DNA of 64,000 nt from Spirochaetia bacterium (GCA_963668315.1 OY764216.1:2560001-2624000), one strand, 5' to 3'. Shown: positions 32,751 through 48,946, counted from the first letter of the stretch. Numbers and translations are program-made. The notes: generated by a model from the letters alone, not told the origin.

Positions 32751-33991
32751 GTATGGGGAACAGCAACGCAGTATTGGTAATCAGGCGGATATCGCAGGCG
32801 ATCGTATATAATCTGGCGAGGCTCATTGTGCTCATCCCGTTTTTCATTATTTTCAAGGTTAAGATTTCCTGGTCCCGTGACTACAGGAAAATACGAGGTC
32901 CCTACGTGGTTTTCGGCCAGCATCAGCTGGCCTGGGATCCGGTTCTGATTACCCTGGGGGGAAAGCATGCTCCCCACTGGGTCGCCACCGATGCCATATT
33001 CCGTAAAAAGGGGCTCGGATGGATCATGAGGAACCTGTGCGCCTGCATTCCCACCACGAAGAATATGTCCGATATGGAGACGATCAAGCTGATACGCATG
33101 TTTGCTGCCCTCGGCGGCCGTATCGGGATTTTCCCCGAGGGACAGCAGACCTGGGACGGGCGGGGGCTTCCCCCCGTACCGGGAACGGCCAAGCTGCTCC
33201 GTTTTCTCAAGCTGCCCGTGGTTTTCGTCTATTCCGAGGGTGCCTATCTCTCCAAAGCCCGCTGGAACTGGGGCCATAACCGAAGGCCCATCTACCTGCG
33301 CTATGAAGTGGGAATCACCGGTGAAGAGATCGCTTCCATGAAACTTTCCGAGATAGAGTACCGGCTGAACCGCTTTCTCGATTATGATGAGTATGCCGTT
33401 CAGAAAGAGAAGATGGTTCCCCTTTCCGGAGAGAAACGGGCCGAAAACATGGAGCTTACCCTGTTCACCTGTCCCCAGTGTGAAAAAATGGGTACCCTGG
33501 CTTCCGAAGGAAACCGCCTGGGCTGTACGTCCTGCGGTTTCCATGTGGATGTGGACCGCTACGGGTTCTTCGACTGGGGCGAGGGAAAAAAGTACTTCGA
33601 GTATATGTACCACTGGAATGAGTGGCAGCAGAAGCATCTCAGGGATATGGCCTTTGAGGCTCTGGAAGAAAAGAGTGCCAAACCTCTGCTGGAAGACAGC
33701 GATGTCTGGCTGAGAACGGGACATAGGCGGAGGCCTCTGGCCCGGGTCGCCAACGGAAGTACCCGGTTCTATACGGACCGAATCGAGTTCATTCCCGCCG
33801 AGGGGGAGCCGATCACCTTCATCCTGAGCGGGATTACGGGCTTGAATGTCTTCAAGCAGCATTTCCTTGAGTTCCACTATAAGCAGAAGCTGTACCGGCT
33901 GGACTTTGAGGGAAAATCCACCTCGGGATACAAGTGGATGTGCCTTTTCTATATACTGCTGGCTCTTGGTAAGGACGTGAAGGTTCTATAA
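32747..33991 (+). CDS. Lysophospholipid acyltransferase (PlsC-like) with Zn-ribbon, paralog of the upstream gene
   Basis: HQLAWD, FPEGQQTWDG and CPQC...CTSC. Confidence 0.88.
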   Translation: MSMGNSNAVLVIRRISQAIVYNLARLIVLIPFFIIFKVKISWSRDYRKIRGPYVVFGQHQLAWDPVLITLGGKHAPHWVATDAIFRKKGLGWIMRNLCACIPTTKNMSDMETIKLIRMFAALGGRIGIFPEGQQTWDGRGLPPVPGTAKLLRFLKLPVVFVYSEGAYLSKARWNWGHNRRPIYLRYEVGITGEEIASMKLSEIEYRLNRFLDYDEYAVQKEKMVPLSGEKRAENMELTLFTCPQCEKMGTLASEGNRLGCTSCGFHVDVDRYGFFDWGEGKKYFEYMYHWNEWQQKHLRDMAFEALEEKSAKPLLEDSDVWLRTGHRRRPLARVANGSTRFYTDRIEFIPAEGEPITFILSGITGLNVFKQHFLEFHYKQKLYRLDFEGKSTSGYKWMCLFYILLALGKDVKVL

Positions 33992-35224
33992 CGGGCGGGC
34001 AATTTTAGCCAGTTTCCTGTGGTAGGTCTCCAGCATATCCTTTTCGAAGGCCTCGTTAGAAGGGTAGCTGCGGCCGAAAACCGGTTCCCATAGGGCCATG
34101 TCCTCCATGCAGAGATAGAAAAAGAGATCCTTACCGTGCCATTCGCCGAAGGAATCATAGGCATGGCGGAAGAGCTGTTCCTTGATTTCCAGGGGATAGG
34201 AAAACTTGCCCGCCGTCTCTTCCAGGGGCATTCTGAGTATCTGGCTGGAAAAGGAGCGGCTGCGGATCTTTTTCAGGACGGGTTTTATGAAAGTGAGGGT
34301 GCCGAAGGAGATCTGAACCAGTTCTTCCGGTGAAAAGAGGGAAACGACCTTTTCAAAAAGAGCGGAGTAATCTTCTTTCCAGTTCCTGTAATACACCATG
34401 GGATGGAAATGAAACCCCACGGGCAGATTCATATCGGCGGCGGTCCTGGCTGCCTTCATCCGTCTTTCCAGGGTGGCCGTGCCCCTTTCCTCGTTTTTAA
34501 TGACCGCCGGAGGGTTCAGGGACCAGGTAAAAAGAATATTGGGAGGAATCGCTTCCCGGTTATCTGTTATCCAGCCCAGGTTGTCCGATTTGCTTTTCAT
34601 CTCCAGTATGACCTGGGGGTTACGCCGTGCGAAGCGAGCCAGTTCTTCAAGGAGTCCCTGGCCGTTTCCTGTGGGATGATTCCCCCACATAAGGGAATCG
34701 GAAGACTGACCCGTGCCTATATGGTAGATCTTATCCTTCACAAGGGTCTTTTCCAGATCTTCGAGTTTTTCCCGGAGATTCCCGTGAAAAGATATTTTCC
34801 CCTGGGAATAAAAGGACTGGATGGAACAGTAGGAGCAGTCGAATCCGCACCGGAAGACCGCATCAAGGGTCATCAGATTACAGCATCTGGTCTTTTCCGA
34901 GGCCACAGGACAGGAACCCAGTATATTTCTTGTATCCTCTATCCTCTCAAATTCCGTTTTTGCGGGAGAAAAGGGCTTTCTGTCCTCCGGCCAGAGGGGA
35001 CCGTCTTTCTTGGCCCGGAGCCACTTTTCTTCAATGGGAGCCAGCGCAGCCTTTCGCAGATCCTTTCCTTTCAGTTTTTCGGAAGGAGTCCTCCACCAAT
35101 CCCGCAGGGGGGGGAAATCCCACTGGGCCAGTTCTCCCAGCCAGAGTTTAAGTTTTTCCTGTTCTCCGAAGGTAAAAGGGTAGAGGGGCAAAAGGTATTC
35201 AAGGTCTTCCTTAACATCTCGCAT
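33986..35224 (-). CDS. Spore photoproduct lyase-like radical SAM protein
   Basis: CGFDCSYC, IGTGQSSDSL, LEMKSKS, WSLNP, VGFHFHP and YLCME. ATG 35224 is supported by promoter TTGAAG-N17-TACACT-N6. Confidence 0.85.
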   Translation of the reverse strand: MRDVKEDLEYLLPLYPFTFGEQEKLKLWLGELAQWDFPPLRDWWRTPSEKLKGKDLRKAALAPIEEKWLRAKKDGPLWPEDRKPFSPAKTEFERIEDTRNILGSCPVASEKTRCCNLMTLDAVFRCGFDCSYCSIQSFYSQGKISFHGNLREKLEDLEKTLVKDKIYHIGTGQSSDSLMWGNHPTGNGQGLLEELARFARRNPQVILEMKSKSDNLGWITDNREAIPPNILFTWSLNPPAVIKNEERGTATLERRMKAARTAADMNLPVGFHFHPMVYYRNWKEDYSALFEKVVSLFSPEELVQISFGTLTFIKPVLKKIRSRSFSSQILRMPLEETAGKFSYPLEIKEQLFRHAYDSFGEWHGKDLFFYLCMEDMALWEPVFGRSYPSNEAFEKDMLETYHRKLAKIARPL

Positions 35225-35412
35225 GGCCCCAGTGTAGTCAATCCGGCCTATCCCTTCAAGGGGAAAAAGAGCCGCCGGGCACATTTGCCCCCGGGCCGGC
35301 CGGGGAAGCTTCCGTTTATATTTGGACTTTTATATATAAATGTGTTAAATTTGAAGATAGGGAGGAGAGCGTGTTTGAATCTATACATGAACACCTCTGA
35401 CTAAGTTAAAAA

Positions 35413-36048
35413 ATGCCTTTGGAAATTCAGTTTTTAGGAAATTCATCATTCGCGATAATAGGGGGAGCCGCTGTCTACATTGATCCCTGGAGGCTGGGAC
35501 AGCTGGAGATAGGCGCGGATTTCATTCTCGTCAGCCATGATCACCATCACCATTTCTCTCCCATGGATATTGAGAGAATCGGCGTGCCGAGCACCCGGGT
35601 ACTGGGCCCCTCCCAGGTCATAGAGAGTCTGGAAAACGGACAGGGCAAGGTTCTTCTGCCGGACAGGGAAATCCTGGATACCCATGTCAGAATCAAAGGG
35701 GTCCCCGCCTATAACCGCCGTTCGGAAAGGCACAAGAAGAGCGACAAGGGATTGGGCTTTATTATTGAGATCCGCGGCAAGAGGATCTACTATGCCGGAG
35801 ATACGGACTATATCGCCGAGATGGAGAACCTCGGACCGATAGATGTCGCCCTGCTTCCCGTGGGAGGCGGATCCGTTATGGGAGTAAGAGAAGCAGTTCA
35901 GGCCGTCAAGGTCATTAAGCCTAAATTGGTAATACCCTACCATTACGGAGACAGCGAGTCGACCATGCTTGCCGGAGAGTCCTTCGCGTCCCAGGCTAAC
36001 TGTATTGTCAGGGTTCTGATTCCCGGCGACAAGGTTACGCTGGTTTAG
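35413..36048 (+). CDS. MBL-fold metallo-hydrolase
   Basis: YIDPW, SHDHHHH, YYAGDT, LLPVGG and IPYHYG. Confidence 0.9.
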   Translation: MPLEIQFLGNSSFAIIGGAAVYIDPWRLGQLEIGADFILVSHDHHHHFSPMDIERIGVPSTRVLGPSQVIESLENGQGKVLLPDREILDTHVRIKGVPAYNRRSERHKKSDKGLGFIIEIRGKRIYYAGDTDYIAEMENLGPIDVALLPVGGGSVMGVREAVQAVKVIKPKLVIPYHYGDSESTMLAGESFASQANCIVRVLIPGDKVTLV

Positions 36049-36054
36049 AGCGCT

Positions 36055-36633
36055 ATGTCGGAACTGTTAACTCATTTTAAAAAAAATCCCCTTATGGCAG
36101 CCTGTAATCTGGATAACATGGAAGAAGCCGCCGGCAGCAGAGCGTCAATCATCCTGCTCATGAAGTGCTCCCTCAATCAGCTGATCAAGCCGGATTTTCC
36201 GGGAAAATGCGGGGACAAACCTCTATTCCTCCATGCCGATATGATCAAAGGGCTGTCGGGGGACAGGGAGTCGATACGATTCCTCCGGGATTTCATCCGT
36301 CCCGCCGGTCTCGTTTCCACCCGGGGGAATCTTATCCGCAATGCCAAGAAGGAAGGGTTCACGGTAATACAGCGTGTATTTCTCATAGACCATTCGTCCC
36401 TGGAAAATTCTCTGGAATCCATAAGGGATAACAAGCCCGACGGGGTGGAGCTGATGCCCGGTATCGCCCTGGATATCATTGAGCGGGTAAGGGGCGAGAT
36501 CGATTGCCCCCTTATCGCCTCCGGACTGATCAGCGAGCGGAAGCAGGTCGTCAATGCACTTAACAGGGGTGTTCAGGCCGTTTCCATGAGCCGCAGCGAA
36601 CTGTGGCATGAAGATTTTAGCCATATGGCTTAG
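36055..36633 (+). CDS. glpP: Glycerol-3-phosphate-responsive antiterminator GlpP
   Basis: LHADMIKGL, IQRVFLID, VELMPG and IASGLI. Confidence 0.92.
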   Translation: MSELLTHFKKNPLMAACNLDNMEEAAGSRASIILLMKCSLNQLIKPDFPGKCGDKPLFLHADMIKGLSGDRESIRFLRDFIRPAGLVSTRGNLIRNAKKEGFTVIQRVFLIDHSSLENSLESIRDNKPDGVELMPGIALDIIERVRGEIDCPLIASGLISERKQVVNALNRGVQAVSMSRSELWHEDFSHMA

Positions 36634-37431
36634 TTATTTCATTCCCGTAATGACAAACGATTCGGTAAATCTTTTCTGAAAAGCGAGAAAGAGAATGAGA
36701 AGGGGCAGTACGGCTATCAGAGTTCCGGCGGAAAGCACAGACCAGTCCACTCCCGATTCGGGGGCGGCGAAAATGGCCAGTCCCACGGTGAGAGGGCGGA
36801 CTCTGACCGAATTGGTGATGATGAGGGGCCACAGGAAATCGTTCCAGTGGTGGCTCACCGATACGAGCCCGTATGCGAGAAAGGTGGATTTGGAAAGGGG
36901 AATGAATATTCTCAGGAGTATTCCCACCCGCCCGCAGCCGTCGATAATGGCAGCTTCCTCCAAATCACGGGGGATGGTTTTAAAGCTTTGCCGCAAAAGG
37001 AAAATCCCGAAGGCGCTGGCGATATAGGGGAGAGCAATCCCGCGGATCGTATCGGTCAGATGGAGAAAGGAGATGGTGCGGTAGTTCTGGACGATGAGTA
37101 TTTCCGGCGTGATCAGAAGCTGAATCATCACAAGAGCGAAGGCTATCTCCCTGCCCTTGAATTCGAAGCGGGCGAAGGCATAGGCCGCCAGGGAGCAGAT
37201 GATGAACTGACCGGTGACGACTCCCATTACCAGAACTGTCGTGTTGAAGGTATACCGCAAAAAGGGAGCGTACTCCAGGGCCTTGAGTATATTGTCTCCC
37301 GTAATGTGAAAGGCGAACGCGGGGGACGTCACATACTCCGCAGGACAGAAGGCGGCCCAGATAGTAAACATCAGCGGAATGAGCCAGAGAATTCCCGCCG
37401 ATATAATCAGAATCATAGCGTATTTTTTCAT
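36634..37431 (-). CDS. Carbohydrate ABC transporter permease (UgpE-like)
   Basis: LAAYAFARFEF, EAA motif LEEAAIIDG, and WNDFLWPL. Confidence 0.93.
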   Translation of the reverse strand: MKKYAMILIISAGILWLIPLMFTIWAAFCPAEYVTSPAFAFHITGDNILKALEYAPFLRYTFNTTVLVMGVVTGQFIICSLAAYAFARFEFKGREIAFALVMIQLLITPEILIVQNYRTISFLHLTDTIRGIALPYIASAFGIFLLRQSFKTIPRDLEEAAIIDGCGRVGILLRIFIPLSKSTFLAYGLVSVSHHWNDFLWPLIITNSVRVRPLTVGLAIFAAPESGVDWSVLSAGTLIAVLPLLILFLAFQKRFTESFVITGMK

Positions 37432-38306
37432 GAATAGTGTACCCTTTTCTCCATAACGGACATATTGAAGTAGGAGATTCCTCCCAGTATTAAAAGAAGT
37501 ATGACGGCCAGGGCCCCCGCATAGGATGTATCGAGGAAGGAGAAGGCCGATTCGTAGATGTAGTAAAGCAGCATATTTGTCGCGTTGTTGGGCCCACCCT
37601 TTGTCAGGATGAAAAGCTGGTCCACTCTCTTGAAGGCATTGAGAGTGGCATTGATCAATACGAAGAGAGTGGTGGGGGTCAAAAGGGGTAGGGTTATGGA
37701 CCGGAAAATACGAAAGGGGCCGGCTCCCTCCATGCCAGCGGCTTCGGCGTATTGGGCCGGAATCCCCTGTAAGGCGGCCAGATAGAAAACCATGAAAAAC
37801 CCCGATTCCTTCCAGACGGCCAGAATCATCATGGCGGGAAGGGCCGTTCGGGTATCCCCCAGCCAGTTGGGGCCGGGAATCCCTATGAGGGAAAGGGAAC
37901 GGTTCACAAAGCCGATCTCCGGGGTGTAAAAAAAGAGCCAGATATTGGCCGCCGCCACCATGGGCAGAATGGTGGGCGTGAAAAAGGAAAGCCTCACGGC
38001 TCCCCGGAAGGGAAGATTCCCGTTTACCGCCAGGGCCATGGCCAGCGCCAGGGCGACCGAGGGGATAACGGTAAACAGGGCGTAAAGGAGATTATTCGCC
38101 AGGGCTTTCTGAAATACCGGATCTCCCGCCAGGGTCGCATAGTTTTCCAGCCCCAGGAAGCGGGAAGGCCTCATCGCCGTTCCCGGATCGTAAACGGAGG
38201 AGAACAAAGTCGCCAGAATAGGCCAGTGGGTAAAAGTTAGCAAGAGCATCAGGGCGGGCGTGATGAGCAGCCAGCCCAACAGGGATTCTCTGTTCTTCTT
38301 CGTCAT
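37428..38306 (-). CDS. Carbohydrate ABC transporter permease (UgpA-like)
   Basis: GLENY, LAALQGIP...EAAGMEGA and TKGGPNNAT. Confidence 0.93.
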   Translation of the reverse strand: MTKKNRESLLGWLLITPALMLLLTFTHWPILATLFSSVYDPGTAMRPSRFLGLENYATLAGDPVFQKALANNLLYALFTVIPSVALALAMALAVNGNLPFRGAVRLSFFTPTILPMVAAANIWLFFYTPEIGFVNRSLSLIGIPGPNWLGDTRTALPAMMILAVWKESGFFMVFYLAALQGIPAQYAEAAGMEGAGPFRIFRSITLPLLTPTTLFVLINATLNAFKRVDQLFILTKGGPNNATNMLLYYIYESAFSFLDTSYAGALAVILLLILGGISYFNMSVMEKRVHYS

Positions 38307-38317
38307 AAGCGATTCTC

Positions 38318-39616
38318 CTAGCGGTAGGGCTTAAGCAGTTTGTCCGCTTCTTCCTGGGCGTTTGCCAGTGCCGATTCGGGAGTCTCCGCACCGGTCAAAG
38401 CGGCCTGGATCGCATCGTCGAGGAGCTTTCTCACGCGGCCCGTCTGGAATGTGGAAAGTTCGGCCGTGGCATACTCCAGCTGATCCCGTGCGACCTGAGC
38501 GGCGGGAAAACCGGCGGTGTATTCCGTGAGTGCCTCCGTATTATAGGCGGCGGGGCTGATTCCCATATATCCGGTCTTCTGACTCCAGAGAGCGGAGTTT
38601 TCCGGTGATGTCATATAGCGGATAAGTTTGACGGAAGCCCTTTTCTCCTCTTCGGTGGAGTTCTTGAACACGTAGAAATTGCCTCCTCCCGTGGGCGAGC
38701 CCCTTCTGACGGAAGAGGGCAGCATGGCGACTCCGAAGTCAAAGGAGGCGTTCTCCTTGACGGCTGTCAGATTTCCCGTTGAATGCCACATCATGGCGGT
38801 TTTCCCTTCGAGAAACTGCTGTCTGAGAGTTCCCCACTCGATGGTGCCCTCGGGCATGATCTTATGATCCCGGCCCAGGGAGAGCCAGAATTTCAGGGCG
38901 TCTACAACGGCGGGACGGTCAAAATAGGTTTCCGTGCCGTCGCCGCTCATAAGGACCTGGTTATTTTCCATGGCCAGGGCTCCGAACATCCAGTAGGGAT
39001 AACCGGTCGAGGGAATCATGAGACCCCAGCGGCTTCCGTCGGCCTTTGTCAGCGCCTTGCCCATGGAGATCATTTCATCCCAGTTCGCGGGAGGTGTTTC
39101 GGGGTCAAGTCCCGCGTCACGGAAGGCGTCTTTGTTGTAGTACATGACGATGGTGGATCTCTGGAAGGGAATTCCCCAGGTCTTTCCTTTGTATTGTCCG
39201 TTTTCCATAAGGGCGGGATAGAAGGAGTTAAGCCAGGCTTTCTCCTCATCGGTTTTCACGATGTCATCGAAGGGAACGATCACATCCTTCTCCATGAGAT
39301 CATAGATATCAATGGAAAAAAGAACGGAAAGCTGGGCGGGCTTGCCGCTTTCCAGGGCCGCCAGGGCTTTGATGCGGGCATCATTGTAATTTCCCGCATA
39401 GATGGCATTTACCTTGATGTCCGGATTCTCCGCCATAAATCCGTTTACCATTCCGTCAATAACTTCGGTTAAGGGACCGCCCACGGAAATGGGGTAGTAC
39501 ATGGTCAGTTCAACAGGACCGGTCGGAAGGGATTCGCCCTTTTCCTGATTTCCATTAGCCCATAATCCGATGGTCAAGATCATGAGAATTGTCAGAATCA
39601 TACTTCTCTTAAACAT
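38318..39616 (-). CDS. ABC transporter solute-binding protein (UgpB-like, family 1)
   Basis: Signal peptide, GIPFQRSTIVMYYNKDAF and TGYM. ATG 39616 follows GAGGAG. Confidence 0.92.
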   Translation of the reverse strand: MFKRSMILTILMILTIGLWANGNQEKGESLPTGPVELTMYYPISVGGPLTEVIDGMVNGFMAENPDIKVNAIYAGNYNDARIKALAALESGKPAQLSVLFSIDIYDLMEKDVIVPFDDIVKTDEEKAWLNSFYPALMENGQYKGKTWGIPFQRSTIVMYYNKDAFRDAGLDPETPPANWDEMISMGKALTKADGSRWGLMIPSTGYPYWMFGALAMENNQVLMSGDGTETYFDRPAVVDALKFWLSLGRDHKIMPEGTIEWGTLRQQFLEGKTAMMWHSTGNLTAVKENASFDFGVAMLPSSVRRGSPTGGGNFYVFKNSTEEEKRASVKLIRYMTSPENSALWSQKTGYMGISPAAYNTEALTEYTAGFPAAQVARDQLEYATAELSTFQTGRVRKLLDDAIQAALTGAETPESALANAQEEADKLLKPYR

Positions 39617-39709
39617 ATTCACTCTCCTCAAATATTTTATCCCCGCTAAAAAGTGTTATCGCCGGGGACAGTACATAGTTATGGCAGAGCTGTTTTCCGT
39701 TTAGATTAG

Positions 39710-39909: not shown

Positions 39910-39943
39910 AAAAAAAGGGCTGTCCGCTAAGGAGACAGCCCTT
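39910..39943 (-). terminator. Rho-independent terminator after the first PEPCK gene
   Basis: Stem AAGGGCTGTC/GACAGCCCTT followed by a T-run on the minus strand. Confidence 0.88.
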
Positions 39944-39968: not shown

Positions 39969-41858
39969 TTAACCCTTGTAAGCTCCGGGAAGGATCTCGT
40001 CGCCGTACTTTTCCTTAACGGCTTTGTACTTGGCGATGGCAGCGTCCCAGTACTCGTTCAGCTCCGCGGGAACGTTGCTGTCCTTGCTGGCGAAGAATTT
40101 CTTGGTTCTTTCCAGTTTTTCGATCAGCTTGGTACAGCGGAAGGTGAAGAGGTAGTCGTACTTCTCTTTGGTGAAGCCTTCATTGGGAAGGAATTCCTTG
40201 AAGAGGGCGTCCAGATCTTCAAACTTGGGAATCTTGCCGGAGGGAGTATCGATCGCATCGTACTCGCCGTGGATTCTGCCTTCGGCCCAGTGTACCCATA
40301 CTTTCTTAGCCAGCTTGCTGGTCATGAATTCGCCCTTGGGGCCTCTCATGAAGTAGTTGGTGGAGAAAACTTTGGGCTCTTCCTTCATGCCTTCCACGAA
40401 TTTGATATTGTTCATGGTGTACTCGCCGAGGGGGTAGGAGACAAAGTCCATGTTGGCCATGGGAGAAGCGGCTCTGACACCTTCCGCACCGAGGGTAGCT
40501 GCGGTGGTTTCGGACTCGAGGGTACAGGCCTTGAGGAGAATACCGTCTTTCCAGCTGGGAGATTCTTCACAGGGTACGGATGTGTCACTGTCCCGTCCAC
40601 CGTAGAGAATTCCGGAAACCTTGACACCTTCCTTGGCTTCGAAACCTTCTTTGTCGTAGTTTTCGAGGTAGTCCAGTCTCATGGTGTAGCGGGAGTTGGG
40701 GTGGGCTACGCCGATTTCCTTGCCCGTGGCGTCCTTGTTGCCTTCGGCCCACTCACCGGAGTGGTTCATTCCGGTCTTGGGAGCTTCAACGCCCTGGCCG
40801 AGCCAGTAAGGCATCTTGTCGGGACCCTGGAGGATGTTGGAGAAGATAACTTCCTGGTTCTTCATGCAGTTCTCGAAGATGACCGGATCGTCCTCGGCGT
40901 TAACATCTTTGATGATGCCGAAGATACCCTGCTCTACGTTTACGGCGCGGAATTCGCCGTTGATATTTCTGGCGTAGATGATGTCGTCACCGACGATTTT
41001 TTCGCCGGGGATCATGGCCGTAGCGGTTTTACCGCAGGCGGAGGGGTAGGCGCCGGAGAAATAGGTTTTTCTTCCGCCCTTTCCGATACAGGCCATGAGG
41101 AACATGTGCTCGCAGAGCCAGCCCTCTTCTCCGGCCTTATTGATAGCCAGTCTCATGGCGTGCTTTTTCAGGCCGACGGAGTTTCCGGCGTACTGAGCGT
41201 TCATGGAGTAGACGATATTGTTCTGGGTGTCCATGTAGATCCGTCTTTTATCAAGATTGACGGAGCATCCTCTTTCATCGACTTTTCCGGCGGAGTGGAT
41301 GAAACGGAAAAAATCGTCACAGCCGGGATTCTTCAGGAAGTGGGTGTAACCGGCTCTGTAGAGAATGGTTTCGGAGTGGGTTACGTAGGAGGAGTCGGTG
41401 AACTGGATACAGGGGATGGTGAAGGGGGATTCGGCAGGTCCTTCGGTGAAGAACTTGACGTAGGCTTCCTTGCCTTCCATGTTGCCTTTGGCAATTCCCA
41501 TGATCTCTTCCAGGGCTTCGTCGTAGGGGAGGGAGTTCATGGCTTTCATCTTTTCCATGTTTTCGGGGTAAACCATGTACCGGGTGTTGACTTTGTCGCG
41601 GGCCTGATCGCCGTAGCCATCCCAGTGGATGGTCTGCTCGGAATGGGCCATAGGATGTTCTTCCCCGTTTTCCAGGGCGACTTTTCTGATGTAGGCTTCG
41701 TCTTCTGCACTGTCATCGCACACGTAAATTGAGGCGGGATTGCAGTGTTCGGCAAAGGAACCAATAAATTCCATAACCTTGTCGTTCTTAAGAGCTTCCA
41801 GTTTCGCAAAGCTCTTGCCACTCATTTTGCTTTTTAACAAATCGGTGTAATCAGCCAT
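39969..41858 (-). CDS. pckG: Phosphoenolpyruvate carboxykinase (GTP), archaeal/Thermococcus-like subtype
   Basis: YAGNSVGLKK, GWLCEHM, AYPSACGKT, VGDDI, HPNSRY and YGGRD. Confidence 0.93.
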   Translation of the reverse strand: MADYTDLLKSKMSGKSFAKLEALKNDKVMEFIGSFAEHCNPASIYVCDDSAEDEAYIRKVALENGEEHPMAHSEQTIHWDGYGDQARDKVNTRYMVYPENMEKMKAMNSLPYDEALEEIMGIAKGNMEGKEAYVKFFTEGPAESPFTIPCIQFTDSSYVTHSETILYRAGYTHFLKNPGCDDFFRFIHSAGKVDERGCSVNLDKRRIYMDTQNNIVYSMNAQYAGNSVGLKKHAMRLAINKAGEEGWLCEHMFLMACIGKGGRKTYFSGAYPSACGKTATAMIPGEKIVGDDIIYARNINGEFRAVNVEQGIFGIIKDVNAEDDPVIFENCMKNQEVIFSNILQGPDKMPYWLGQGVEAPKTGMNHSGEWAEGNKDATGKEIGVAHPNSRYTMRLDYLENYDKEGFEAKEGVKVSGILYGGRDSDTSVPCEESPSWKDGILLKACTLESETTAATLGAEGVRAASPMANMDFVSYPLGEYTMNNIKFVEGMKEEPKVFSTNYFMRGPKGEFMTSKLAKKVWVHWAEGRIHGEYDAIDTPSGKIPKFEDLDALFKEFLPNEGFTKEKYDYLFTFRCTKLIEKLERTKKFFASKDSNVPAELNEYWDAAIAKYKAVKEKYGDEILPGAYKG

Positions 41859-42067
41859 TTTAACTCCTTTGTGTTTATTTAATCTAAATCTTTAAGCTTT
41901 TCATTATATAGCTTTACAGAAAACGAATAAAAAGTCAATGATAAAGGCAACCCCGTCGTAAAGCCGGTATGATGTAGGGAAAAGGAGGGGGATGGAATTT
42001 ACAGAAACTTTTATCTGGGATATAAATAGATAAAAAAATACTTTGAAAAAAAACGAGGTCCGGCGGG

Positions 42068-42442
42068 ATGGAAAAAACAAAAGGAAAAATGGAAGCGGAG
42101 ATAAGCGAAGCGGTAATCCGCTTTGAAAAAGAGTTTATGGGAAGAGGGCCTCTTGAAACAAAAAGCTATATTCTCGACGATATGATTATCGTCAGGCTCA
42201 GAGATGTTCTGACCCCCGCGGAAAAAAAGCTGGCCCAGTCGGACGACCCCAACGACGGAAGAGTCCTTATAAAGAGAATGCGCCATGCGCTCCTGGAGAA
42301 GGGACGGCCCCTGCTGGAAGCGGCGATTTTCAATATAACCGGGGAGAGTGTTATTTCCGTGCATTCCGACTTGAGTACGAAGACGGGGGAGAAGATTATT
42401 ATATTCTCCCTGGATGGAAAACTATTTCTTTCAGAATCATAA
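42068..42442 (+). CDS. DUF2294 / MpsC family protein
   Basis: EAEISEAVIRFEKEFMGRGP, LTPAEKKL and SVHSDLSTKTGE. Confidence 0.9.
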   Translation: MEKTKGKMEAEISEAVIRFEKEFMGRGPLETKSYILDDMIIVRLRDVLTPAEKKLAQSDDPNDGRVLIKRMRHALLEKGRPLLEAAIFNITGESVISVHSDLSTKTGEKIIIFSLDGKLFLSES

Positions 42443-42459
42443 TTGAGGCGTCCGGTTTA

Positions 42460-42487
42460 TTGACGAAAAGCCATATTTGATTAAAAT
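42460..42487 (+). promoter_or_regulatory. Putative sigma-70 promoter of the second PEPCK gene
   Basis: TTGACG-N16-TAAAAT, about 180 nt upstream of ATG 42670. Confidence 0.55.
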
Positions 42488-42494
42488 GATCCTT

Positions 42495-42669
42495 GCTCGT
42501 ATTCAGGGGAGAAAGGGTTGAATAAACCGGTTCTCCTAAGAATCCCGCAGCCCTTTCCAACCCAAGGCTTGCATAGGTCCGGAATATCCGGGCGGCTGCT
42601 AAGATAGGGGATTATACAATATCCGGCAGGCTTGGAAAAATATGACCATGCCGGGACAAGGAGTAAATA
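42495..42669 (+). promoter_or_regulatory. Long structured 5' leader, candidate cis-regulatory RNA
   Basis: Several alternative helices (listed in findings). The last hairpin abuts the SD AAGGAG. Confidence 0.5.
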
Positions 42670-44487
42670 ATGTCTGTTCAAACAAAACATGCAAAATTGA
42701 ATGCATGGGTTAAGGAGATCGCCGATCTCTGTACCCCCGACAGTGTAGTTCTCTGTGACGGAAGTCAGGCGGAATACGATGAAATGATTAAAATCTGTGT
42801 GGATGGCGGTCTGGCTATTCCCCTGAACGAGAAGAAGAGACCCGGTTCGGTTCTTTTCTCTTCCGATCCCTCCGACGTGGCCCGTGTCGAAGCGCGTACC
42901 TATATCGCTTCCGAGACCAAAGAAGCCGCCGGTCCCACCAACAACTGGATCGATCCCAAAGAACTGAAGACCACGATGAAAGGTTATTACCAGGGATGTA
43001 TGAAGGGCAGAACCATGTACGTGATCCCCTTCTCCATGGGACCTGTCGGTTCCAACATCGCCAAGATCGGTGTTGAAATCACCGACTCCGCCTATGTTGT
43101 AGCCAATATGCACATCATGACCCGCGTGGGAAGCAAAGTTATGGACGTTCTCGGTTCCGACGGTGAGTTCATCGAGTGTCTCCACTCCGTGGGCAAGCCC
43201 CTGGCCGAAGGCGAAAGCGACGAGGGCAAATGGCCCTGCGCTCCCATCGAAGATAAATATATCTCCCACTTCCCCGAAACAAGACAGATCTGGTCTTACG
43301 GTTCCGGTTACGGTGGAAACGCTCTTCTGGGTAAGAAGTGTCTGGCCCTGAGAATCGCCAGCGTTGTCGCCCGTGATGAGGGATGGCTCGCCGAGCACAT
43401 GCTCATTCTCAAGATCACCAGCCCCGAAGGCGTTGTCAAGAACGTGGCAGCCGCTTTCCCCTCCGCCTGCGGAAAAACCAACCTGGCCATGCTTATCCCC
43501 ACCATTCCCGGCTGGAAGGTGGAAACCATCGGTGACGATATCGCCTGGATGAAGTACGGTAAAGACGGAAGACTCTACGCCATCAACCCCGAAGCGGGAT
43601 TTTTCGGCGTTGCTCCCGGTACATCGGACGACTCCAACCCCAGCGCCATGAAATCCATTGAGAAAAACACCATTTTCACCAACGTTGCCCTCACTGAGGA
43701 CAAGGATATCTGGTGGGAAGGAATCGGATACGACGCTCCCGGCAAGCTGATCGACTGGAAAGGCAACGAGTGGGTTCAGGACAAAGGCAACAAGGAACAG
43801 GCTCCCGCGGCCCATCCCAATGCCCGTTTTACCGCTCCCGCTTCCCAGTGTCCCGTAATCGCTTCCGAATGGGAAGATCCCAAGGGTGTACCGATTGACG
43901 CTATCCTCTTCGGCGGACGCCGCCCCAGCACCATTCCCCTGGTTCACCAGGCCAAGAGCTGGAACCACGGTGTTTTCATGGGCTCCATCGTAGGTTCGGA
44001 AGTAACCGCCGCCGCTCTGGACATCAAGGCCGGTACCATCCGCCGCGATCCCTTTGCCATGCTTCCCTTCTGCGGATACCACATGGGAGAATACTTCAAG
44101 CACTGGATCGAAGTGGGCAAGAAATCCACCGAAGACAAGCTTCCCAAGATTTTCTTTGTCAACTGGTTCCGCAAGACCGCCGAAGGCAAATGGCTCTGGC
44201 CCGGTTACGGTGACAACAGCCGCGTTCTGAAGTGGGTTTTCCAGCAGTGTGAAGGCACCGGTGATTTCGTTGAGACTCCCATCGGCAACATGCCCACCAT
44301 TGACGCTATCGACAGACCCGAAGGTGTTTCTGCCGAGGATATGAAGGAACTCCTTTCCGTTGATAAGGAAGGATGGCTCAAGGAGCTGGCCGACGTTCGG
44401 GACAATCACTATCCCAAATTCGGCGACAAGCTTCCTTCCGAGCTGACCGAATTCCTGAACTCCGTTGAAGCTTCCCTCAAGGGCTGA
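42670..44487 (+). CDS. pckG: Phosphoenolpyruvate carboxykinase (GTP), canonical bacterial subtype
   Basis: [47 protein letters not shown] and [10 protein letters not shown]. Confidence 0.97.
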
Positions 44488-44507: not shown

Positions 44508-44542
44508 AAAAGGGCCGTCCCGGCATATGCGGGACGGCCCTT
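44508..44542. terminator. Probable bidirectional terminator between convergent genes
   Basis: 12-bp stem AAGGGCCGTCCC/GGGACGGCCCTT. Confidence 0.85.
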
Positions 44543-46907: not shown

Positions 46908-47360
46908 ATGTATGAATTAGATTCCTATATGGATGTTAAGAATATTAGTTTCATCCAGGAAAGTTCTAAGGAAAAAGTACTGGAAAAAATGGTACAGCTG
47001 AGTTTTGATAACGGAAAGATAAGGGACCTGGATAGCTTCAAGAATGCTATTTTCGACAGGGAAGGAATTATGAGCACCGGCCTCGGACTGGGACTGGCCG
47101 TGCCCCATGCCAAGCTGAAGGGGATCGATGAGTTTTTCGTTACCATCGGAATCCTGAAAAATCCCGTGGAGTGGCAGGCTATCGATGATCAGCCCGTTTC
47201 TCTTGTTTTCATGATAGGCGGTCCCGATAACAGACAGCAGGATTATCTGGGTATTCTTTCAAAGCTGGTCCTTTTCACCAAAAACAGCGACCGCCATGAA
47301 GGACTTCTGAAAGCTTCCACTCCTGAGGATGTCATCAAGTTATTCATATCGAGAAATTAA
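46908..47360 (+). CDS. PTS EIIA domain protein (fructose/mannitol/Ntr type)
   Basis: DREGIMSTGLGLGLAVPHA, which carries the phospho-His. Confidence 0.93.
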   Translation: MYELDSYMDVKNISFIQESSKEKVLEKMVQLSFDNGKIRDLDSFKNAIFDREGIMSTGLGLGLAVPHAKLKGIDEFFVTIGILKNPVEWQAIDDQPVSLVFMIGGPDNRQQDYLGILSKLVLFTKNSDRHEGLLKASTPEDVIKLFISRN

Positions 47361-47363
47361 GCC

Positions 47364-48584
47364 ATGGAAGAGATCCCCTCGTTTATCTATCTGGCGGTTA
47401 TTTTTCTGGCCGCCTTCTTGACCAAGAAAGTTACGGAAAAAATAAAGATCCCCGAAGTAACCGGATTTGTGCTGGTCGGCGTGATGCTGGGAGTTTCCCT
47501 CCTGCACGTACTCAGCCCCGAGACGGTGGAACGCTTATCGGGCATCAGTACTGTCGCTCTGGGCATCATCGCTTTTATCATCGGTGTCGAACTGAGGCTG
47601 GATGTCATCAAGAAACTGGGACGATCGGTTTTAATGATCGTGCTTTTCGAATGTCTGGGAGCCTTTGCCATCGTCTATTTTGTTCTGATGCTGCTCTATC
47701 CGGACAACCCCTATCTGGCGCTGCTGCTGGGATCGGTCGCCTCTGCCACCGCTCCGGCTGCCACGATAGCCGTCATCAAGCAGTACAAAGCCAAGGGGTC
47801 CCTTACGTCTACGGTTATTGCCGTGGTGGGTATTGATGACGCCATGGCGCTCATTATATATGTTTTTGCCTCCAGTATCGTGAAGGCAGGCCTGACCGGG
47901 GGACACGCCCAGATGATTATGATCGTGGGAAGCACCCTTCTGTCCATCGGGGAGTCAATCGTCTGCGGTACCATCTGCGCCTTTCTTCTGAAGCTCCTTC
48001 TGAACAAGGTGAGGGAGACGGAGCTGATCCTCTTTCTTCTGGCCGCCGTCATAATGGGACTTCTCGGGGTCAGCGAAATCCTGGGGATCAGCGAGCTGCT
48101 CTCTATCATGTCCTTCGGATGTGTTCTGGTGAATATCGCACCCCAGCTGGCGAAAAGGAGCGGCGGTCTCATTGAGAATTTCTCCCCCATCTTTCTTGCG
48201 GCGTTTTTCCTCCTGGGTGGAGCCCACCTGGACCTGCGTCTTCTGAAGCAGATCGGGGTCATGGGGCTCATCTATTTCGCTTCCCGGAGTGTCGGAAAAA
48301 TGGGCGGGGCCTCCATAGGCGCCGTACTGGGGAAAGCTCCCAGAACAGTTAAGAAATACATCGGATTCACCCTGCTGCCCCAGGTCGGAGTCGCCCTGGC
48401 TCTGGCCCTGTCCATCAGCAAGGAGTTCACAAAACCCGTATATGGTGATATGGGGAATCAGATGGCGACCATTATCATCAACATTTTATTATTCACAACC
48501 ATTATAACAGAGATCGTCGGACCGATGCTCACCCGTTTTGCCTTGAAGAAGGCCGGAGAGATAACCGTCGGAGCTCAGGAATGA
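47364..48584 (+). CDS. Cation:proton antiporter
   Basis: Multi-TM protein with SATAPAAT, VVGIDDA and LLPQVGVALAL. Confidence 0.92.
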   Translation: MEEIPSFIYLAVIFLAAFLTKKVTEKIKIPEVTGFVLVGVMLGVSLLHVLSPETVERLSGISTVALGIIAFIIGVELRLDVIKKLGRSVLMIVLFECLGAFAIVYFVLMLLYPDNPYLALLLGSVASATAPAATIAVIKQYKAKGSLTSTVIAVVGIDDAMALIIYVFASSIVKAGLTGGHAQMIMIVGSTLLSIGESIVCGTICAFLLKLLLNKVRETELILFLLAAVIMGLLGVSEILGISELLSIMSFGCVLVNIAPQLAKRSGGLIENFSPIFLAAFFLLGGAHLDLRLLKQIGVMGLIYFASRSVGKMGGASIGAVLGKAPRTVKKYIGFTLLPQVGVALALALSISKEFTKPVYGDMGNQMATIIINILLFTTIITEIVGPMLTRFALKKAGEITVGAQE

Positions 48585-48946
48585 CAAGGGAGGAAAGCAT
48601 GTTTTATCTATTAGTTGAAGTATACGATTCATCATACCGTGAGGATATCTATCTGGCTTTGCAGAGTATCGGCGTGCAGCGTGCCATTACTCTGGATGCC
48701 CAGAATATAGCCGGCGCCCTATCCGATGAGCAGACCTTTTTCACCGGCTTCTTCCGTTCCGATAAGTTTGATTCGGGAAGCATTCTGCTGATTCAGGCCC
48801 AGATCGGAAGCAAGGAACAGGCCCGGGAATTTCTCTCCAACCTCAGGGAGGCGGGTGTCGCCATCGACGATGAGGATATTCTCAGTCTGACCCTTGTCCC
48901 CGTGGCGGCCGGTTTTTCCCGGCAGAACGGATTCAGGGAGAATTAA
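48581..48946 (+). CDS. Hypothetical protein, possibly PII-like fold
   Basis: 121 aa. LLVEV...DIYLALQSIGVQRAITLD, a loop, and a terminal LTLVPV strand resemble PII-like topology. ATGA overlap with the antiporter. Confidence 0.6.
   Translation: MTREESMFYLLVEVYDSSYREDIYLALQSIGVQRAITLDAQNIAGALSDEQTFFTGFFRSDKFDSGSILLIQAQIGSKEQAREFLSNLREAGVAIDDEDILSLTLVPVAAGFSRQNGFREN

Follow-up and report, generated by a model that had tools for sequence, protein, structure and literature searches.

The locus studied here raises the question of what a small gene of the DUF2294/MpsC family does between two genes for GTP-dependent phosphoenolpyruvate carboxykinases (GTP-PEPCKs). The cassette (39969-44487) lies in a 64,000-nucleotide stretch of DNA from a Spirochaetia bacterium (GCA_963668315.1 OY764216.1:2560001-2624000), hereafter the window, and we name its minus-strand enzyme pckA and its plus-strand enzyme pckB. 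An earlier note on the window had proposed that DUF2294 chooses between the two isozymes in response to CO2 or bicarbonate. Our analysis points to a different target. Between DUF2294 and pckB lies a conserved and structured leader RNA that the note had missed, and this leader is likely a switch for pckB alone rather than a toggle between both PEPCKs. With a probability of about 0.5 we read DUF2294 as an RNA-binding attenuation protein that responds to inorganic carbon, and the window as a structurally variant instance of an undescribed, attenuation-like system made of a protein and an RNA.

The leader would be transcribed from its own promoter, with a predicted start at ~42495, and hexamers resembling this promoter are found at the equivalent place in relatives. 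It folds better than shuffled sequences (z -2.4). In the hairpin of domain 1, 7 pairs separate two 2x2 purine loops (AG/AA and AG/GG); in domain 2, three of the four pairs of the inner stem covary over nine leaders, and the closing helix (CCC/GGG) corresponds to the overlap with the 5' arm of the terminator in those relatives that have one. The hairpin adjoining the ribosome-binding site has a counterpart before pckB in another genome (G003). For model R3, a hand-drawn structure was combined with the sequences of three other loci; it matched the window at 42490-42623 with 39.5 bits (E 9e-8; next match 12 bits), and this leader also ranked first in the genome. In 36 other genomes R3 gave matches in two only, at leaders matching the training set. 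No second copy of the leader was found in the window's genome (G000), where the R3 runner-up (E 0.05) lies inside a coding frame. An nhmmer profile from four other leaders had its best genome match at 42550-42610 (E 0.046). At the gathering score, Rfam matched neither the window nor the leaders of eight related loci, and over the window leader it gave nothing at E<=5. A descriptor of the two-loop hairpin matched the genome 22 times, domain 1 being the sole match in the window, with a chance of about 3e-4 for any given 175-nt stretch, and three loci of the same family (L012, L014 and L112) pass it with arms of 8-10 pairs. A strict version, which matches only the window hairpin in the genome and recalls four other loci, was written after that hairpin had been seen and is not relied on. 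Of 15 long leaders from spirochaetes, 13 can be parsed with an upper AG/RG loop, the exceptions being G003 and L060, and in eight the parse reaches P<=0.05 against shuffles.

Comparison with a close relative, one contig of which spans 41700-42900 unbroken at ~94% identity, shows fewer changes in the leader than around it. The leader carries 5 substitutions in 175 bases against 73 in the other 1026 (P 0.03); four of the five fall in the 10 terminal-loop bases, among them both substitutions in domain 1, and one keeps its pair (P about 0.01, counted as three events), the change at 42648 turning a U-A into a U-G pair. The divergent intergenic region (41859-42067) differs in the same contig by 18 substitutions and one insertion. 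In the best predicted fold of the leader (-59.5 kcal/mol) the first four bases of the transcript pair with the ribosome-binding site, which is largely free in a fold with domain 2 closed (-57.4 kcal/mol). Pairing of the ribosome-binding site region with the 3' arm of domain 1 was also considered and rejected, being 8 kcal/mol worse than the best fold. No such leader was found before pckA, either in the window or in six loci with pckA only, nor before pckB in two genomes lacking DUF2294.

A conserved element lies between DUF2294 and the next gene at most of the 54 DUF2294 loci that we collected by scanning GTDB genomes. Its short form, seen in Bacillota, Halanaerobium, Fusobacteria and some spirochaete records, is ~45 nt long with few invariant bases, and consists of GGAAGAC, a hairpin with two 2x2 purine loops and a terminator, the 5' arm of which supplies the closing pairs of the hairpin. 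Over 25 sequences, 16 of the 20 pairs show changes on both sides, a value reached in none of 500 shuffles and lower in slid controls; pairing is kept at 73% for the hairpin part alone and at 97% for the terminator. A covariance model from short-form leaders (R1) detected held-out spirochaete leaders, two of which precede pckB (L107 and L110). At E<1e-3, R1 matched 5 of 27 spirochaete genomes with DUF2294 and 0 of 53 without it, and at >=40 bits it matched 4 of 121 Clostridia genomes, all beside DUF2294 and one being a training genome; six weaker matches in genomes lacking DUF2294 are terminators without the hairpin. Among the genomes that lack DUF2294 (53 spirochaete, 112 clostridial), no intact leader was seen, in searches of low sensitivity that scored few candidates and missed leaders found by locus search. 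In Desulfuromonadales records, too, DUF2294 is followed by long leaders that have two domains and a terminator. Several long leaders of relatives carry terminators, while others, like that of the window, are without a clear U-tract. A leader helix that is mutually exclusive with an intrinsic terminator is seen in the short forms and in several long ones.

A survey of DUF2294 neighbourhoods for carboxylases, carbonic anhydrases and bicarbonate transporters, as the earlier note had suggested, strongly links the family to inorganic-carbon genes. Counting same-strand genes within 2.6 kb downstream, 32 of the 54 loci hold a known CO2/HCO3- enzyme or transporter, 14 DUF4914, 3 DUF3360 and 5 nothing recognised; upstream of DUF2294 the same reference set of CO2/HCO3- genes is met in only 1 of 54. 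The 32 targets comprise PEPCK (7), PurE/PurK (20, often together with carbonic anhydrase, PurC or Sua5), SbtA-SbtB-PEPC (2), and biotin carboxylase, carbonic anhydrase and an oxidoreductase (1 each); among the target types are beta-carbonic anhydrase, Sua5 and 2-oxoacid oxidoreductase. The tallied enzymes use CO2 or HCO3-. For PEPCK, the substrate is given as CO2 in the text consulted of PMC8100219. DUF2294 with a following hairpin stands before such genes in records of Spirochaetota, Bacillota, Desulfobacterota-type Desulfuromonadales, Fusobacteria and Nitrospiraceae, and in one genome a leader precedes biotin carboxylase on a contig other than that of DUF2294.

Some of these neighbours deserve mention in their own right. 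DUF4914 (PF16260) is the commonest gene 3' of DUF2294 (L095:6466-8343 and 21 other loci). It aligns to the catalytic core of GTP-PEPCK over 181 columns (probability 92%, E 7e-7), which makes it a candidate for a further PEPCK class; no solved relative of it was found, and the term is absent from the literature searched. DUF3360 membrane proteins, candidate transporters of inorganic carbon or dicarboxylates, stand directly after the leader or after DUF4914 (L080:6517-7920, L073:8959-10194). In two spirochaete genomes a protein without a Pfam match is encoded between leader and DUF2294 (L169:2-1462, L170:1667-2521). In G048 (G048:C151:15824-19609, L178) three short leaders surround one DUF2294 and precede DUF4914-PPDK, a major facilitator superfamily (MFS) transporter, and an unknown protein co-oriented with DUF2294. 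Two or three copies of DUF2294, some in tandem, are present in L067, L142, G381 and G308.

The window encodes an intact DUF2294 protein that shares 96% identity with a close homologue. The protein matches PF10057 above the cut-off over positions 1-110 of 111 (123.8 bits, E 4e-36), and in a profile search this was its only domain, CAT and PRD domains being absent. An AlphaFold2 model shows a confident alpha/beta domain (pLDDT 93). It has no sequence match in the PDB and no Foldseek match at E<=1e-3; with VIA-align the best Z was 7.0, and the type-II KH domain of RbfA scored in the noise range (Z 5.8, rmsd 3.6 over 88 residues). The lack of a structural match does not make the fold new. Conserved features are a turn (E20-E22-M24-G-R26-G-P28), the basic residues R26, R43, K69, R72, R80 and R/K109, and a strand with S97-H99-D101-S103-T104-G107-E108.

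The distribution of the genes was surveyed in 41 genomes of the family and class within Spirochaetota. GTP-PEPCK is present in 24 of them, of the pckB type in 9, of the divergent type only in 14, and as fragments that were not classed in 1. DUF2294 occurs in 9 of the 41, namely in 7 of the 9 pckB genomes, in none of the 14 divergent-only genomes and in 2 without GTP-PEPCK. In a class-wide sample it was found in 26 of 301 genomes, and of 17 newly located loci, some of which repeat loci of the 54-locus set, 8 have pckB within 1.5 kb, 2 have DUF4914 and 2 PurK/PurE. Both enzymes occur together in only 4 of the 41 genomes and are adjacent in every case, in two arrangements: in G000 and G003 pckA and pckB diverge around DUF2294, as deduced for G003 from two contigs that share 11 letters at their ends, within the leader, and in G012 and G024 DUF2294 diverges from pckB and pckA is convergent. 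No pckA adjoins the module in G002, G007, G020, G255, G280 and G291, and a genome search found no pckA in G002, G007 and G020. In genus g5, one and the same pair of flanking genes encloses pckA in two genomes (G016 and G022) and DUF2294-pckB in two others (G020 and G291). The use of one chromosomal slot by both genes accounts for the adjacency of pckA and pckB. On the simplest reading, taken with a quick unrooted tree, the ancestor would have had both enzymes at this slot, with either of them lost later in different lineages. What is conserved as a unit is DUF2294, a promoter, the ~175-nt structured leader and pckB. In G020 and G291 (L013 and L164, compared with L012, L014 and L017), DUF2294 is 75-78% identical to that of the window and pckB clusters with the other enzymes of g5 (about 62%), a pattern in the sequences that suggests a swap of target or regulator.

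Known attenuation systems offer a model for how such a unit may work. In the BglG/SacY/LicT antiterminators, the RAT RNA forms a short hairpin, interrupted by two small internal loops, which overlaps the 5' arm of an intrinsic terminator and is bound by dimers of the CAT domain. The DUF2294 system resembles these in its two-loop hairpin over a terminator 5' arm and in a regulator gene that adjoins its target; it differs in that DUF2294 has neither CAT nor PRD, that the RNA sequence is another and the targets are carboxylation genes, and that the window copy has two domains and no U-tract. With the ligand-responsive attenuation proteins HutP, PyrR and GlpP of Bacillus it shares the order of a small regulator gene, a leader with terminator and metabolic genes, although DUF2294 has no sequence match or clear fold match to them and its predicted ligand is inorganic carbon. 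We propose that DUF2294 likely binds the leader and likely turns pckB on when CO2 or bicarbonate is probably limiting. It would recognise the hairpin with two 2x2 purine loops, much as CAT-domain dimers do RAT RNA. In most genomes the bound hairpin would overlap and block the intrinsic terminator, and, being stabilised against it, would turn carboxylation or carbon-supply genes on when inorganic carbon is short. Since the U-tract is missing in the window, the output there is predicted to be translational, through alternative pairing of the ribosome-binding site; two predicted folds that are 2 kcal/mol apart differ in this pairing. To judge from the target list, the signal would be CO2/HCO3- or a carboxylation intermediate, and could also be a related metabolite, because MFS or antiporter-family transporters and unknown genes also stand under the control of some leaders. 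pckA would be an unregulated partner, the two enzymes being alternatives at one slot that some lineages keep together.

A number of observations weigh against an attenuation protein acting on this leader. The window leader lacks a U-tract terminator, and the pairing predicted to hide its ribosome-binding site consists of 4 pairs in which no covariation is seen. R1 finds nothing in the window or the genome, R3 matches none of 29 other loci, short forms included, and R2, a Desulfuromonadales domain 2 model that is a weak test, its automatic structure having kept only 5 pairs, has no match at the window leader. Because R1 and R2 miss this leader and R3 misses the short forms, the kinship of long and short forms is drawn from their architecture. 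Three of the four nhmmer profiles, from the five leaders of the divergent arrangement, all nine spirochaete leaders and six Desulfuromonadales leaders, also miss it. The descriptor recalls 29 of 54 leaders and fails on that of G003, and its 7-pair arm was allowed after the window had been seen; the 8-10 pairs found in most training leaders would miss the window. The count of 32 in 54 loci used reference genes chosen from those same loci, in which related genomes are not independent; 5 of the 54 have no recognised target, and some leaders precede genes not known to be linked to CO2, which encode MFS proteins, members of the Na+/H+ antiporter family or unknown proteins. DUF2294 is missing from two of the pckB genomes, and in two others it occurs although GTP-PEPCK is absent. 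DUF2294 is not basic (pI 6.2). In Staphylococcus aureus, deletion of mpsC left growth in air unaffected, according to the relevant part of PMC6689103.

The leader could instead be a riboswitch that senses bicarbonate, CO2, a cation or a carboxylation intermediate itself, with DUF2294 as an accessory or co-regulated protein. The conserved purine loops and the terminator-overlapping helix would fit a ligand-binding RNA, as would the two domains and own promoter of the long forms and the position of the leader before an operon containing DUF2294 at two loci (L097 and G048). A short form of ~45 nt with few invariant bases is, in our judgement, small for a metabolite pocket, and intact leaders were not met in the DUF2294-negative genomes, at the low sensitivity given above; we regard a riboswitch as unlikely. 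The window copy might also be decaying or set to a fixed level, its terminator lost and pckB constitutive, in a system that is real elsewhere. The absent U-tract, the shorter, 7-pair arm of domain 1, the lower loop that is not kept in G003 and the terminators in several relatives' long leaders speak for this. Yet the relative's leader has changed less than its surroundings and in the loops, DUF2294 is intact, and other long leaders also do without a clear U-tract, so that decay appears improbable.

That DUF2294 binds DNA, or is a metabolic accessory that carries CO2/HCO3- or assists an enzyme, with the leader serving another partner, would agree with its near-neutral pI, with the S97-H99-D101-S103-T104 strand that resembles a ligand site, and with conserved basic residues that could bind anions. 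It is hard to square with DUF2294 and leader preceding unrelated enzymes and transporters, DUF2294 being usually outside the gated transcript, or with a codon bias that is that of a weakly expressed gene, and we consider it quite improbable. As to the reciprocal choice of pckA or pckB by CO2 put forward in the earlier note, several of its premises stand: DUF2294 is a stand-alone gene here, without MpsB, its link to inorganic carbon is found at the loci surveyed, and its linkage to pckG is conserved for the pckB type. The two enzymes are neighbours in all four genomes that have both, in two different arrangements, both genes have strong codon bias, and the proteins differ at several positions, the region of the nucleotide pocket included. 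The choice itself, between isozymes that the note supposed to differ in direction or CO2 affinity, is not supported, as both enzymes are rarely found together, the module often lacks an adjacent pckA (with none found at all in three of these genomes), no leader was found before pckA and the shared chromosomal slot accounts for the adjacency; it now seems very improbable. The preferred reading remains an attenuation protein acting on pckB.

The enzymes themselves are as the note had described them in their main features. Both score above the cut-offs of PF00821, PF17297 and NF003253 (567 bits for pckA and 934 for pckB; cut-off 504), keep the PSACGKT and EHM motifs, and are highly divergent, with 28% identity and places in deeply separate clades of a quick, midpoint-rooted tree without archaeal sequences. 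At what we take to be the catalytic positions, numbered after the rat enzyme, both retain the catalytic Arg, the Lys/His/Asp metal ligands, the P-loop SxCGKT, the lid Thr/Ala and the substrate residues; pckA deviates in two places, the first Lys of the KK pair and, towards the C terminus, a stretch of the nucleotide pocket. Metal, P-loop and substrate residues are thus those of known GTP-PEPCKs (EC 4.1.1.32; Mycobacterium/Corynebacterium-type 4wiu and 2zci), unlike which pckA has no close solved relative in a sequence search of the structure database (best match E 3e-60, against E 3e-237 to bacterial GTP-PEPCKs for pckB), and two GTP types stand side by side. The description of pckA as archaeal-like is loose, since its nearest Atlas clusters are 60-83% bacterial, one having Thermoplasmatota as its commonest known phylum. 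Its clade includes 12 other spirochaete proteins, is spread through the family and is the commoner GTP-PEPCK among the relatives. Codon bias is 0.79 for pckA, 0.74 for pckB and 0.38 for DUF2294, six neighbours lying at 0.49-0.64, and by this measure the two enzymes have the bias of well-expressed genes and DUF2294 that of a weakly expressed one. A third GTP-PEPCK clade with altered lid residues occurs in the class (L034, L037, L038 and L039). PEPCK classes are treated in PMC8100219, with the archaeal type, and in PMC2684135, in the portions consulted.

The coordinates of the features are collected in Table 1. The note had the cassette bounded by terminators on both sides. The left one is on the pckA strand; the right one is called on the minus strand, facing the convergent aldo-keto reductase gene, and at best acts in both directions. 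The cassette is more than one transcript unit, because a promoter and the conserved structured leader separate DUF2294 from pckB. The possible DUF2294 promoter was not called by a promoter scan; it sits within a 74-nt stretch that is identical in the relative's contig. Two opposite-strand ORFs (40269-41732 and 42481-44409) were rejected as genes and read as shadows of the pck genes.

Table 1. Features of the pckA-DUF2294-pckB region, in window coordinates.
Feature	Position	Strand	Basis
Intrinsic terminator 3' of pckA	39915..39943	-	11-pair stem and U-tract on minus strand
pckA, divergent-clade GTP-PEPCK, 629 aa	39969..41858	-	PF00821/PF17297, NF003253 567 bits
Possible sigma-70-like promoter of DUF2294, TTTACA-17-TATAAA	41998..42026	+	Read by eye, putative
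DUF2294/MpsC, 124 aa, candidate RNA-binding regulator	42068..42442	+	PF10057 E 4e-36
Sigma-70-like promoter of leader and pckB, TTGACG-16-TAAAAT	42460..42487	+	10/12 consensus
Structured 5' leader of pckB	42495..42669	+	R3 match 42490-42623, fold z -2.4
Leader domain 1, two-loop hairpin, predicted protein-binding element	42501..42543	+	Descriptor match
Leader domain 2, predicted antiterminator-like hairpin	42561..42609	+	Folds, inner-stem covariation, nhmmer 42550-42610
Hairpin without U-tract adjoining ribosome-binding site AAGGAG (42658-42663)	42622..42663	+	Predicted fold
pckB, canonical GTP-PEPCK, 605 aa, likely regulated gene	42670..44487	+	NF003253 934 bits
Terminator hairpin between pckB and convergent aldo-keto reductase gene	44510..44542		13-pair stem, U-tract called on minus strand

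The genome of the window (5.6 Mb in one contig, 97% complete) holds one PF10057 gene and two PF00821 genes and, elsewhere, a beta-carbonic anhydrase, two PPDKs, a biotin carboxylase and PurE; SbtA, archaeal-type PEPC and DUF4914 have no match in it. The note had seen no MpsA/MpsB transporter in the window. For DabA/MpsB (PF10070) this extends to the whole genome, with 0 matches where control genomes were positive, MpsA not having been searched separately. Beside the cassette (35413-39631), genes for a glycerol-3-phosphate-type ABC transporter converge on a gene of the GlpP-family antiterminators (PF04309), a second RNA-level regulator adjoining it. Further off, a PTS EIIA-2 domain protein, a Na+/H+ exchanger and a 121-aa protein without family match form an apparent single operon (46908-48946), and a radical-SAM protein of the spore photoproduct lyase family is encoded, in a spirochaete, at 33986-35284.

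Like the MpsABC locus of Staphylococcus aureus and the DAB pumps, the window has a PF10057 protein adjoining inorganic-carbon genes, and unlike them its genome has no MpsB/DabA match. As far as the relevant excerpts of PMC6689103 and PMC8552792 go, mpsC is dispensable for the staphylococcal pump, is given no function, and is discussed with no mention of an RNA element. Among titles and abstract openings, in a collection with few subscription papers, we found no MpsC-linked RNA, nothing related for DUF2294, only staphylococcal papers of relevance for MpsC with bicarbonate, and nothing relevant for ybcI with carbonic anhydrase or in the literature on riboswitch candidates, attenuators, RNA motifs and antitermination. 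What is new here is the two-domain, terminator-less variant of the leader and the swap of PEPCKs at one chromosomal slot; the two-PEPCK arrangement itself is of modest interest.

To our knowledge, the sensing of CO2 or bicarbonate for control of carboxylation genes in non-photosynthetic bacteria is poorly known. A fuller reading, which we offer tentatively and hold to be possible rather than probable, is that DUF2294 is a CO2/bicarbonate-sensing RNA binder with an unmatched fold and part of the first RNA-level switch for inorganic carbon, present in many phyla and placed before the particular carboxylase, carbonic anhydrase or bicarbonate transporter on which a lineage depends. Here it would have been rewired from termination to translation, giving an inducible second PEPCK beside the resident one. 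The system is compact, a protein of 124 residues and an RNA of 45-175 nt. If the reading is true, the shared leader would point to DUF4914 as a PEPCK-related enzyme and to DUF3360 as a candidate inorganic-carbon transporter, and PF10057, a family set aside as dispensable in the excerpts cited (PMC6689103, PMC8552792), would gain a function.

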